Shown here piece by piece: positions 21,731 through 48,617 of a DNA stretch of 64,000 nucleotides. Position numbers and translations under genes: made by a program. The first letter of the stretch is position 1, and each line of letters begins with the position of its first letter. Location: IMG/VR virus record IMGVR_UViG_3300025270_000009, positions 37,853 to 101,852 of that record. One strand, 5' to 3'. This DNA is from a virus. Lineage: Duplodnaviria; Caudoviricetes. The notes under the pieces were generated by a model that saw nothing but the letters and a program-made list of their open reading frames with translations, was not told the origin of the DNA and did not search any database.

Positions 21731-22091
21731 TTAGCCTGTTCTATAAGGGTTTTGGCGATTGTCTAACAAGTGCATTCATTAACTTTTCTTTTTTCTGACT
21801 TCGGCAATGGGTCAAGTAACGCTTCTCTGCAGCCCTTGTCAGTTCGTTCTGAGAGTCGGGTGGTCTGGTTCAAATTTATTGGTTAAGCGCCTTAAACTGG
21901 TGCAACCAGTTCTTTTCAAAACTTTACACTTTTGTGACTGCGGCCAATGCCACGAATTGACAGCCGGCTTTGAGCTTTTTGCTATACGGGTATAAGAGTC
22001 GATAACCTGGTGAGGCGGAAATTTGCCTAATTCCGTCGACCGGGTGATTTGGCTTGCTGTTTTGATTTGGCTGCTCGGGGAATTTTAGGCG

Positions 22092-22247: not shown

Positions 22248-22379
22248 TCAATTCAGCATCATAATGCTATTACAAACAACAATCCCCGAAACGATCAAGC
22301 CGACAACGGATAATAAAGCGGCTTGTTTTAGTTGTTTATTGCGCTCTCTGCGCTTGATTCTCTTACTATAACGGCTCAT
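22248..22379 (-). CDS. small membrane peptide (43 aa)
   Basis: MSRYSKRIKRRERNKQLKQAALLSVVGLIVSGIVVCNSIMMLN; GGGAG RBS; ATGA overlap. Confidence 0.65.
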   Translation of the reverse strand: MSRYSKRIKRRERNKQLKQAALLSVVGLIVSGIVVCNSIMMLN

Positions 22380-22483
22380 AAAAACGCTCCCGATGACATA
22401 TAAGCTAGAGTAAAAGCAAACGGAACACCGACAACAACGAATAAAACGAATTGAGCGGCTTTCTTAGCGGTTTCTTTAATCAT
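22376..22483 (-). CDS. small membrane peptide (35 aa)
   Basis: MIKETAKKAAQFVLFVVVGVPFAFTLAYMSSGAFL; GGAG RBS. Confidence 0.65.
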   Translation of the reverse strand: MIKETAKKAAQFVLFVVVGVPFAFTLAYMSSGAFL

Positions 22484-22503
22484 TGCGAACACTCCGACCG
22501 ATG

Positions 22504-22533
22504 AAAAGAAAGAGCGGCACAGAATGCCGCTCT
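22504..22533 (-). terminator. intrinsic terminator
   Basis: agagcggca-cagaa-tgccgctct plus U-tract on minus strand. Confidence 0.65.
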
Positions 22534-22540
22534 GTTGCTC

Positions 22541-23218
22541 TTACTTGATATTGAATGCGGCTTTAAGCGTATTAAGCTTTTTAGTGTCCGCTGTCTCAGT
22601 CTCTAAAATACCGCCCCGACCGATCCAGTTGCCGAGCCCGATAAAAGCAAGTGACTTTAAAAACTCACGGCTTTGTGTCGCTGTCTTGTTGTCAATATGC
22701 TTTTGCAGCTTATCGACCGTGATCGCTTTCTTGTCGAAATTCTCTAAACAAAAACGGATCGCTTTTTCAAAGTTCGACAATTGCGGGTTGTATGTTTGCC
22801 CGTTCGCTTGTCGGGTTGTGTTCGCTTGATGTTTCGCTTTTTTCAGTGCGTTTTCTACGGTTTCACCGTGAAGAATGAAACATAAAGCGCTCATTTTTCC
22901 GTAGTTGTTGCGCTTTGCTTGCTCTGGATTTTTAGCGTGTTGTAATACGTCCGCTACTTTACCGGCAAAAGTGTAGTAGTTGTGTTGAGTAGCGGCTCGC
23001 TGTATAGCGTCAAAGTCGGCAGCGCTTTTGTCGGTTTCACTGATTTTTTGCGCTAGAGCTTCACGCTGCTTTGCTTGCTCTGTTGCAAACTCTGCAAAGC
23101 TCGGCTTTGTCTCTTCTGCTTTTTTCGCTGTCTGTTTGCGAGTAGCGGTTTTTTTCGCTGCTGCTTTTTTAGCGGTTTCTTTTGCTTGAGTTGCTTTAGT
23201 GTTTTTACGTTCTGACAT
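22541..23218 (-). CDS. hypothetical protein with K/A-rich N-terminus (putative pre-early DNA-binding protein)
   Basis: 225 aa; histone-like N-terminus; own operator-controlled promoter. Confidence 0.75.
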   Translation of the reverse strand: MSERKNTKATQAKETAKKAAAKKTATRKQTAKKAEETKPSFAEFATEQAKQREALAQKISETDKSAADFDAIQRAATQHNYYTFAGKVADVLQHAKNPEQAKRNNYGKMSALCFILHGETVENALKKAKHQANTTRQANGQTYNPQLSNFEKAIRFCLENFDKKAITVDKLQKHIDNKTATQSREFLKSLAFIGLGNWIGRGGILETETADTKKLNTLKAAFNIK

Positions 23219-23291
23219 AATAATTACTCTCTAAGTTTGATTGATTTTAAGCTGTATCGGCTCGGCTCTTTGTGCCGTGTCGATGATTCTT

Positions 23292-23319
23292 ATATTACAA
23301 CGCTGAGATATTCGATCAA
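23292..23319 (-). promoter_or_regulatory. promoter with operator (23292-23311)
   Basis: TTGATC..TG-TAATAT; operator atattacaacgctgagatat; AT-rich upstream region. Confidence 0.7.
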
Positions 23320-23539: not shown

Positions 23540-23810
23540 AATTCCAAGGACAAGCCCTCTCCCCTATGCTAATACAGCCTTTCCCTAACCCTGGCACAGC
23601 TCTCCCTGGCCATTCCTGTTGTCACAGCGCCAAGGTAACCAAGGCTGTTTTCTACAAATCCAAGGAAGCTCAGGTTTGCCCACGCTAACGCAGCCTTTCC
23701 CAAGTTTTACCAGGTCAGGCACTATATAGACCAAGGCAACCTTGGAGCCGGTGTGTGCTTACCAGTGGTCGGTCTATATCCCTACGCTAACGCAGCCATT
23801 CTTAAAATTT
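23540..23810. repeat. CCAAGG / CCTAYGCTAACGCAGCC motif cluster
   Basis: Motif copies at 23563, 23679 and 23781; ccaaggcaaccttgg at 23731. Confidence 0.75.
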
Positions 23811-24627: not shown

Positions 24628-24715
24628 TTGCTTGCTTGTTTGCTGAATGTTGTTGAGCGATTTGCTGTCTCGCTTCAACGGTTTCTATATTACAGTGCTG
24701 AGATAGGGGAGCAAG
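24628..24715 (-). promoter_or_regulatory. leader/operator/promoter unit
   Basis: ttgcttgtttgctgaatg; operator 24687-24706. Confidence 0.75.
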
Positions 24716-26777: not shown

Positions 26778-27020
26778 CTACACCGCTGATAGTTCGTAAA
26801 TAACATGACCCTCACGCTCAGCCCAATCGACTAAGTGACGAGTCACCTCTGTCCAGTTCTTAGGAGCCGGTTTATCGCTTGGCCAACCGTCTCCTGCCCA
26901 AATCTCTTCCAGCTCTTCACCGTTATTCCAGTCACCGGCGATGAGAACGTTCGAGCTCTCATCCCAGTCACCAAAACAACTGATCCGGTGGCCACGATAG
27001 GTAATGACTGTTTTACTCAT
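26778..27020 (-). CDS. hypothetical protein
   Basis: 80 aa, GGAGG RBS. Confidence 0.7.
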   Translation of the reverse strand: MSKTVITYRGHRISCFGDWDESSNVLIAGDWNNGEELEEIWAGDGWPSDKPAPKNWTEVTRHLVDWAEREGHVIYELSAV

Positions 27021-27283
27021 GACGCCTCCGGATCGAAGTTAATGAACAGGTCGGCCACACTCTCGATAGCCACCCACATTTCATCAACGGTAAAGTCCTG
27101 GTAAGACTCAGCCGGTACCAAGTCACCGAAGTCGTTTGAACCATCGGGCATTTCATAAAGGGTCTTCAATGCCTGGTCAGCGGTTACCTCGTGCTCGGCA
27201 GGATTGTCACTGTCAGACACATTGTTGAAGAATAAAAGGAGTGAGCGCTTGTTGTAGGCTTCACGTATTTCATTGGCTGTCAT
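27017..27283 (-). CDS. hypothetical acidic protein
   Basis: Start reassigned to MTANE (27283), downstream of leader and operator 27319-27338. Confidence 0.7.
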   Translation of the reverse strand: MTANEIREAYNKRSLLLFFNNVSDSDNPAEHEVTADQALKTLYEMPDGSNDFGDLVPAESYQDFTVDEMWVAIESVADLFINFDPEAS

Positions 27284-27449
27284 AATAGACTCCACTTGCT
27301 GTTGCTGAATGTGCTTATATATTACATTGCTGAGATAGGCACGCAATAGCGACCGTTTATTCATATTCCTGCATAACTATCCACTATTTAAAACAAACCC
27401 TCGGGGATTTTTCTCGAAAACTGCATACCTACCCACACAAAGTGAATAA

Positions 27450-27780
27450 AACCCAAGGATTCCACGCATAAATACCCTATACAAACCCAAACCAACCAAG
27501 GACGCCTTGGATTAAACCCGACCTGCAGGTAACAGCCGGCCAAGGACTCTACATTCCTATGCTTTCATAGCCTTTCCCAAATTCTGACAGCCAAGGCTCT
27601 CTACAAACCTATGCTAACGCAACCAGTCCTGAATTCTGCTATAACTCCCTCACTCAATGTCGTTCCAAGAGCTTCACAGGCACGAGAACACGTCTAAAAG
27701 GGAAAACCTAAGCAACCATACCACCCAAGGGCTTACAATCGCTTACAGAGCGTGTCAGGCTTCCTTGGTTCAATCCCACA
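27450..27780. repeat. third CCAAGG / CCTATGCTAACGCA cluster
   Basis: ccaaggacgccttgg at 27496; motif copies at 27556 and 27608. Confidence 0.7.
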
Positions 27781-27844
27781 AGGGCTGGCAGTTATGTTTA
27801 TCACCGACTGTTGCTCACCACCGGCTGCGTGTTACTATAAACAC

Positions 27845-27920
27845 CGTCATGAAGAGCTGATTACTCTTTTTGATTATTTTAAGCTGTATTAGCCCTGGCC
27901 TCACGGTCGGGGCTTTTTTA
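27845..27920 (+). ncRNA. candidate antisense sRNA (sRNA-3) to leader of gene 22541..23218
   Basis: TTGCTC..TACTAT promoter; 8+7+14-nt identity blocks to 23223-23257; G-U-containing terminator plus U6. Confidence 0.72.
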
Positions 27921-28741
27921 TGGGTATAAGAAAAGACAGTTGGTAAATTTTTTTTGGAAATTTTGCGAGCGCCTGGTTTCCGGCTGTTTGTGCGTGTCCT
28001 GACTGGCCTGGGATTTTTTGGGTATAAAAGTTTGAGGGTCGCGCCCAATTTTTTTGTGAGGGAGCGCGTTCAACTAAACTCGTGCCTACTCCAATCACTC
28101 ACTATCTGCCTACTCTCTCAATCTCCTCTCTATACACTCGTGCCTACTCACATCATTCTCAATCGCCTACTTTCTCATTCAACAATCAATACACTCCTAT
28201 TCTACCTACTCACGCTCTCTCCCTTCATTCTCCCAATGTACACGTTATGCCTAATCACTCTCTCTATACACGTAAGCTCTCTTCTCTCCATAAGCATGAG
28301 CTCTCCCTGTACCTGTGTGAACGTTTGTTCTTCTCCGTGTGTTTCTTTGTTTTGTTTTATCGTTAGCTCCTTTACTCCTTATGATTGTTTGTTCATCCCT
28401 CCTAATGTTCGTTGTCCGTGTGAAATGTTTTTACTTTTATCGTTAGTTCCTGTCGGTCAGAACCGTTCTCCGGCTGTTACCTTTGATTGTTTTGTATTAT
28501 TGATAGCCGAGAGTTTTTGAAATTGTTTGAGGCATTTGTGTTTTGTGTAGCCTGGGTGTTTGTTGGACTTGTTTTGTGAACGGGTTATTCCTGTGTTTTG
28601 TATAGTGAGCCGGGTGTTTGCTTGTGTTTGTGAAGGGAATGCTGTGCTGAGCTTATGAGACGCTTATTTGCTTGGTTTTGTTTTGTGTTGTGAGTCAGAA
28701 TGAGAAAAGCCGACTCTAGGCCGGCTCTGTTAGGCTCTCAA

Positions 28742-48464: not shown

Positions 48465-48553
48465 AAAAAACCGCCTTCCCAAGCAAAAGAAAGGCGGTCT
48501 ACATTCAGCAATAGCAAGCAAGGTTTTACAAGAAGTGCAAAATCACGCTTACT
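48465..48553 (-). ncRNA. candidate master antisense sRNA (sRNA-4) complementary to conserved early leader
   Basis: TTGTCG-17-TGTAAT promoter; 25-nt seed at 48524-48500; terminator ACCGCCUU..AAGGCGGU plus U-tract. Confidence 0.75.
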
Positions 48554-48617
48554 TTGCTCATTACAGCATAAACCCTGGGCTGCGACAAGTTTTAATGCTT
48601 AATGCTGAATATCGGCT

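Follow-up and report, generated by a model that had tools for sequence, protein, structure and literature searches.

The plus strand of the phage genome carries a short unit that, on the sequence evidence, fairly probably codes for an antisense sRNA, encoded in trans, that would prevent translation of a 225-aa gene. The two loci lie 4.6 kb apart, with ~10 genes between them, in what we call the window, the whole stretch of 64,000 nucleotides that was analysed and that makes up the final 64 kb of an IMG/VR virus record of 101.8 kb. An initial annotation of this DNA had proposed a dedicated antisense silencer. A conserved scaffold, a seed that co-varies with its target, a unique target within the phage genome and an sRNA-like architecture all speak for such an RNA, while the silencing itself is predicted from sequence.

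The coordinates of the unit and of its proposed target are collected in Table 1. In the predicted structure, the unit displays the classical architecture of an sRNA. The plus-strand RNA folds with -27 kcal/mol (z -4.45) into a 5' hairpin, an open linker and a terminator. The anti-SD block AUUACUCU (27860-27867) sits inside the 5' hairpin, and the linker holds a 14-nt perfect block (27876-27889). The terminator hairpin (27891-27914) consists of ten pairs, seven of them G-C and two G-U, and is followed by a T run to 27919. Its two G-U pairs render the terminator strand-specific, as they turn into A-C mismatches on the minus strand and interrupt the stem there. The minus-strand fold of the unit reaches -18.7 kcal/mol, which is 8 kcal/mol worse, and the terminator scan called the terminator on the plus strand only. 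Scan and fold thus both confirm the earlier proposal of a terminator that is valid on the plus strand through G-U pairing.

The proposed promoter elements TTGCTC and TACTAT are likewise present, separated by a spacer of 16 nt, and we infer transcription of the sRNA and its start point from them. Compared with the consensus, this promoter-like site is weak, matching at 3/6 and 4/6 positions in addition to the TG, and at 7/12 in total it was too weak to be called in the consensus promoter scan. Comparison among the relatives gave no conserved ORF across the unit. A plus-strand protein gene was considered for the ORFs at 27657-27860 and 27752-27892 and rejected, as neither has an SD and the frame is not kept in the relative L003. 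The Rfam scan of the window returned no family at gathering score, and at E values up to 5 yielded only chance matches driven by the terminator (VrrA, anti-hemB, Acido-Lenti-1).

Table 1. Features of the candidate sRNA unit and of its proposed target, with the identity between the window and the relative L003.
Feature	Position	Strand	Description	Identity, window vs L003
225-aa gene	22541..23218	-	Lys/Ala-rich disordered N-terminal tail, all-helical body	
5' leader of the 225-aa gene (proposed target)	23219..23285	-	complementary blocks 23223-23230, 23236-23242, 23244-23257	62%
Promoter of the 225-aa gene	23292..23319	-	TTGATC, 16 nt, TGTAATAT; repeated phage promoter family	
Upstream noncoding flank				56%
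sRNA promoter region			TACTAT and TTGC invariant, spacer variable	63%
-35-like hexamer TTGCTC	27811..27816	+	read in sequence	
Extended -10 TGtTACTAT	27830..27838	+	TG 27830-27831, TACTAT 27833-27838	
Candidate sRNA, ~75 nt	27845..27920	+	inferred start ~27843-27846	
5' hairpin	27846..27874	+	GUCA/UGAU plus GAAGAG/CUCUUU, loop CUGAUUA	93% (28/30 positions)
Single-stranded linker (seed), 16 nt	27875..27890	+	unpaired in MFE and centroid structures	50%
Rho-independent terminator	27891..27919	+	10-bp stem, 2 G-U pairs, loop UCAC, U run	93%
Downstream flank				65%

The body of the unit repeats part of the leader of the 225-aa gene. The sequence ATTACTCT at 27860-27867 equals 23223-23230 (8 nt), TTTGATT at 27869-27875 equals 23236-23242 (7 nt), and ATTTTAAGCTGTAT at 27876-27889 equals 23244-23257 (14 nt), so that the three blocks reported to reproduce 23223-23257 are all found where they had been placed. 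The 225-aa gene is encoded on the minus strand, and a plus-strand RNA is therefore antisense to its leader, SD and gene start. In line with the claimed complementarity to the mRNA leader including the SD, the 8-nt block spans four of the five SD bases (GAGAG, 23227-23231). The gapped local match scores 23, compared with 16.8 +/- 1.4 and a maximum of 20 for 60 shuffled queries on both strands of the whole 101.8-kb genome; it exceeds chance genome-wide and is the sole strong match. The 14-mer by itself is not significant (E 0.02), and a 3-mismatch search for the match remains at chance level.

Duplex prediction extends the complementarity beyond the three blocks reported first, along the whole RNA. 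At one end, CAT at 27849-27851 faces the start-codon triplet (23216-23218); at the other, the 3' half of the sRNA terminator corresponds to the leader's 5' hairpin. Complementarity over the full length makes the unit a paralogous copy of the complete 225-aa leader. The promoter-like site of the sRNA is placed where the coding sequence would begin in such a copy. Within the core, the complementarity is imperfect (29/~35), with pairing of 14+7+8 nt from -41 to -6 of the 225-aa gene, and it includes an accessible seed, as is typical of a trans-encoded sRNA. To search for targets, the RNA minus its terminator was compared with 60-nt windows on both genome strands (n=10,180, mean -15.6, sd 3.8). 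The duplex with the 225-aa leader, at -40.2 kcal/mol, is the best non-self hit, and the next window follows at -31.6. No other strong target is predicted within the phage genome.

The leader itself is predicted to fold into a 5' hairpin followed by an open A/U-rich stretch at the site of seed pairing, and its SD region is also predicted to be open. The promoter of the 225-aa gene is of the type cTTGnnn..CTATCTCAG..TGTAATATA, with further copies at 24686, 25539, 27318 and 31789. After the other promoters of this family comes the common leader ACATTCAGCAAGCAAG, which is missing after the promoter of the 225-aa gene; the initial annotation was correct on this point. A strong bidirectional terminator (22511-22533) directly follows the gene, and behind it are encoded two tiny peptides, 35 and 43 aa long and predicted to be membrane peptides; terminator and peptides together fall within 22248-22533 (minus strand).

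The AlphaFold model of the 225-aa protein is of low confidence (mean pLDDT 57.7), and its N-terminal tail of ~40 residues, rich in Lys, Ala and Thr, has a pLDDT of ~30. Comparison with Pfam, PHROG and PDB sequences gave no family match, Foldseek with the model returned nothing at E <= 0.001, and the leads from the atlas are weak and all below the reliable range. The suggestion of a toxic or lysis-committing product was dropped, since no family or fold match supports it. From the composition, one might guess at a DNA-binding role.

Homologues of the 225-aa protein are rare. Three were found at 96%, 73% and 58% identity, and a profile search of 1.8 billion representatives added two further distant ones, whose contigs end before the position of the sRNA. 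Both loci are present in the same order in L002 (95 kb) and in L003 (90 kb), the latter a roughly 70%-identical relative. The target locus only is carried by L004, L036 and L037, and L035 is a near-identical copy of the genome of the window. A covariance model of the unit matches in the window, L002 and L003 only. A helicase profile retrieved 80 related phage loci (40-52% identity), among which neither a 225-aa homologue nor a match to the covariance model was found. Scans of viral contigs gave nothing, either when seeded with the 225-aa, 88-aa and helicase proteins or as exact DNA searches with a 24-mer of the hairpin and a 20-mer of the terminator. A metagenome scan with an 18-mer gave 30 loci, all of them chance matches in unrelated, mostly coding sequence.

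Comparison of the window with L003 offers a view of how the unit evolves. Its hairpin and terminator are 93% identical, whereas the true leader retains 62%, indicating that the copy is constrained more than its source. A relic would not outdo its functional source in conservation, which argues against decay. The initial annotation had named a decayed duplication as the finding that would speak against an sRNA. Duplication of the leader is indeed supported, but decay is not, as the unit is better conserved than the leader. The position of the unit, its promoter hexamers and its terminator are syntenic in L003. TACTAT is invariant in the window, L002 and L003; the -35 element of L003 reads TTGCGT, with TTGC kept, and is followed by a 17-nt spacer of diverged sequence. 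Taken by its sequence, the unit is a maintained paralogue of the leader and not a decaying relic.

The variable part of the unit changes together with its target. The motif AAGCTGTAT occurs at both loci of the window and of L002, and AGCGA at both loci of L003. In the window and L002, the RNA gene reads GATT-ATTTTAAGCTGTAT and the leader GATTGATTTTAAGCTGTAT; the corresponding sequences of L003 are GATTGATTTTAGCGAATCAT (RNA gene) and GATTGATTTTAGCGATTTGCC (leader). The same segment of the L004 leader differs again (AAAAGCATAAT), indicating that it evolves fast. The longest exact match between cognate partners is 14 nt (window with window) and 16 nt (L003 with L003), compared with 8 and 12 nt for swapped partners. 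Whole-molecule cofolding gives ddG values of -27.2 and -21.1 kcal/mol for the cognate pairs and -12.6 and -15.9 kcal/mol for the swapped ones, so that cognate pairs are 5-15 kcal/mol better. In the cofold, the terminator is retained and the 5' hairpin opens and pairs over SD and AUG.

A conserved scaffold with co-changing seed and target, the pattern typical of a trans-encoded sRNA, is thus seen across two independent lineages with both loci and amounts to 2-3 changes (about one indel and two substitutions). A column-wise count across the genomes yields 2 compensatory and 10 broken pairs and was not used as support, because the indel shifts the register. In a plain alignment, the L003 sRNA fits the target of the window almost like its own (17 vs 16). 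The anti-SD block is not strictly kept and is weaker in L002 and L003, which suggests that the essential contact is made by the upstream 22 nt.

Gene conversion between the two copies could also give the appearance of covariation. The unit might then be a non-functional relic, a decayed duplicate of the 225-aa leader or of the leader of a lost paralogue, with its similarity maintained by occasional conversion. Homology to the leader over the full length, including the start-codon triplet, would be expected of such a relic; recombination is active in phages, and the parallel changes number only 2-3. The identical tracts between the copies are 14-16 nt long and bordered by differing positions, however, which is short for conversion tracts. 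Nor does a relic account well for a hairpin and terminator at 93% identity next to flanks at 56-65% and real leaders at 62%, or for the syntenic position, promoter hexamers and terminator in L003, and we regard it as improbable. Similarly little credence is given to a genuine sRNA whose main role is something other than silencing the 225-aa gene, be it action on a host mRNA or stabilisation or activation of the target. Host genes are frequent targets of sRNAs from phages and prophages (PMC12197685), and our target scan covered the phage genome. Yet 29-39 bp of co-changing complementarity to one phage leader far exceeds what a host seed needs, and the SD of the leader is already open, leaving nothing for activation by unmasking.

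Somewhat less remote, although still unlikely in our judgement, is a conserved element with a function other than that of a repressing plus-strand sRNA. The minus strand could provide a mimic of the leader that titrates a protein or RNA binding to the 225-aa leader. Such a mimic is hard to reconcile with the terminator stem, which is broken on the minus strand, with the scan, in which an upstream minus-strand promoter-like site was not found, and with the ATG of the copy, which opens no ORF (11 aa in the window, 4 aa in L003). Alternatively, TGATTGATTTTA might be a DNA or RNA site for one regulator shared by both loci. This core is kept in four target leaders and in the sRNA copies, and other conserved repeats and motifs are densely packed throughout the 1.35-kb ORF-free region. 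A shared protein site, on the other hand, leaves unexplained why the variable part beside the core changes in parallel and why an intact plus-strand terminator and -10 element are retained. The unit could also represent the 3' end and terminator of a longer plus-strand transcript, which a promoter-like site at 27204-27233 on that strand could feed.

Under the preferred reading, that of a trans-encoded antisense sRNA, we propose the following mechanism. The unit would have arisen as a copy of the 225-aa 5' leader with its start codon, SD, A/U-rich stretch and 5' hairpin. This copy would have gained a sigma70-type promoter on the former coding side, and the old leader hairpin would have been remodelled into a terminator. 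The resulting sRNA of ~75 nt, probably constitutive or early, would display a 16-nt single-stranded seed between its 5' hairpin and the terminator. Pairing would nucleate between this seed and the unstructured part of the leader, from -41 to -20 relative to the AUG, and the duplex would then spread via the opened 5' hairpin across SD and start codon. Binding of the 30S subunit would be blocked and translation with it, and the helix of ~22 bp would probably expose the mRNA to RNase III. The sRNA could serve to shut off an early protein or to control its dosage, possibly with a lineage-specific specificity as in heteroimmunity.

By analogy, the unit would be an unrelated example of an already known kind of regulator, with the c4 RNA of P1/P7 as its nearest analogue. 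The c4 RNA (immI) is a trans-acting RNA of ~77 nt that represses icd/ant; complementary copies of its own recognition sequences lie around the target RBS, and translation is blocked (PMC12197685). Between P1 and P7 the recognition sequence differs with matching changes in the target, resulting in heteroimmunity (PMC12197685). Like c4, the unit would be a phage RNA of ~75 nt whose recognition sequence is repeated at the RBS of a phage gene. In contrast to c4, which is cut from the same operon transcript just upstream of its target, the unit has its own promoter-like site and terminator and lies 4.6 kb away. The recognition elements a and b of c4, reportedly from the work of Citron and Schuster in 1990, are two short ones, whereas the unit is a paralogue of the full-length leader. 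Furthermore, c4 belongs to the immunity system of the temperate P1, whereas no integrase was found in this phage. Neither the c4 family covariance model nor Rfam gave a sequence or structure match to the unit.

Trans-type type I antitoxins (IstR-1/tisB, OhsC/shoB, AgrB/dinQ) are terminated sRNAs that can pair over ~18-30 nt with the 5' UTR of a single dedicated target. This complementarity stems from a local sequence repeat; the antitoxins act at the RBS or upstream of it, and RNase III is often involved. The toxins of such loci are hydrophobic peptides of <60 aa encoded beside the sRNA. The proposed unit likewise would be a dedicated silencer made from a sequence repeat. A type I toxin-antitoxin system was nevertheless rejected, since the target is a hydrophilic, Lys/Ala-rich helical protein of 225 aa, located 4.6 kb off, and the two tiny predicted membrane peptides downstream of it lie behind a strong terminator.

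The OOP RNA of lambda (against cII) and the sar RNA of P22 (against ant) are terminated RNAs of ~70-77 nt that pair at or near the start or end of translation, and the outcome is blocked translation and/or cleavage of the duplex by RNase III (PMC12197685). These RNAs overlap their targets and are perfect complements by construction, whereas the unit lies away from its target, complements it imperfectly and has to co-evolve with it. A cis-antisense RNA of this type was ruled out for the unit by its distance from the target, the genes between them and the lack of overlap. Prophage sRNAs of the Hfq type, such as DicF, combine a 5' stem-loop, an open seed and a rho-independent terminator (PMC12197685). 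The unit shares this modular build and has a U tail plus a U-rich stretch before the terminator. DicF-type RNAs use short seeds on host mRNAs, in contrast to the long complementarity of the unit to a gene of the phage itself.

A second candidate antisense RNA was noticed at 48465-48590 on the minus strand, with TTGTCG, a 17-nt spacer and TGcTGTAAT. By-eye inspection revealed CCUUGCUUGCUAUUGCUGAAUGU, which is the common leader in reverse complement, immediately ahead of a strong terminator. This same design makes the use of such RNAs by the phage more plausible.

The DNA around the two loci is rich in repeats. The motif GGGTATAA(G/A) occurs at 21988, 22095, 22131, 27922 and 28020, all on the plus strand, five copies against 0.66 expected; a T/A tract stands before each of them, and TGGTAGGCGGAAA or TTGGCAGAAAATTTT after it. 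The copies group into two iteron-like clusters, of which one sits just downstream of the 225-aa operon and the other directly after the sRNA terminator, and the motif is conserved in L003 and L004. The clusters could mark the ends of a 5.9-kb block, perhaps a terminal repeat, or be protein-binding repeats. Further downstream, the ORF-free stretch 28075-28700 displays extreme strand asymmetry. Its plus strand is nearly all C/T to ~28320 (GC skew -0.72) and nearly all G/T beyond that point (GC skew +0.54, AT skew -0.6). The stretch has internal repeats of ~58 nt, and a 188-aa plus-strand ORF in it is not called in relatives.

Gaps between small gene cassettes contain a direct repeat of ~40 nt (CTCTACAnnCCTAYGCTAACGCAGCCnnTCCnnAA), in a single orientation at 23554, 23666, 23772, 24793, 27547 and 27599 (plus strand). 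It often occurs together with the palindrome CCAAGG-N3-CCTTGG (a CCWWGG pair) at 23731, 24757, 25984 and 27496, and in L003 the loop of this palindrome varies while its arms are kept. The promoter family, in the form cTTGnnnGCCTATCTCAGCnnTGTAATATA followed by the common leader, is found at 27284-27365 (minus strand), 24686, 25539 and 31789, and without that leader at 23291. The copy at 27284-27365 is 97.6% (80/82) identical to L003, compared with ~56% for the adjoining DNA, which suggests a bound regulator. The 88-aa gene at 27017-27283 (minus strand), which adjoins the noncoding region, is only 67% identical to L002 5233-5502, while the flanking genes are at 96-99%; by this comparison, a single small gene has undergone mosaic replacement.

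The genes in the window include those for a tape measure protein, portal, large terminase, SbcCD-like nuclease, NrdAB and a helicase, and nearly all genes are carried on the minus strand. Among named phages, the closest terminases (54-57%) belong to siphophages of Pseudomonas, Stenotrophomonas and Rhizobium of ~110 kb, and many T5-like phages also match. By sequence, the terminase groups with those of large T5-like or Nickie-like siphophages. A search of the phage for a tyrosine integrase found none, no tRNA or tmRNA genes were found, and the phage does not encode Hfq. The relative L003 encodes an H-NS-like protein with Histone_HNS domains (1266-1685), which hints at a gammaproteobacterial host for the clade.

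To our knowledge, nearly all described phage RNAs directed against the phage's own genes belong to temperate model phages (P1/P7 c4, P22 sar, lambda OOP), and most of them are cis-antisense. As a speculation that we consider rather unlikely as a whole, a presumably virulent ~100-kb siphophage might regulate its own early genes by a set of antisense RNAs, each of them a 5' leader that was copied and is transcribed backwards, the present unit acting against the private leader of one gene and the 48465-48590 unit against the leader that many genes share. Seeds would diverge with their targets between sister phages, with lineage-specific cross-immunity as a possible result. The pair would occupy the ends of a 5.9-kb block that has GGGTATAAG clusters as its borders, maybe a terminal repeat or the first-entering segment, and the RNA would time the shut-off of a pre-early protein. 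Even apart from this speculation, the proposed sRNA would, if real, widen the repertoire, since it would be encoded in trans by an uncultured marine phage that is large and apparently lytic. The origin of the RNA would be legible from its sequence as a leader copy turned around, which would represent a simple evolutionary route to a dedicated silencer. The differences in seed and target between the sister phages would provide a natural pair of orthogonal RNA/leader switches, and the 225-aa protein would be something that the phage must control tightly.
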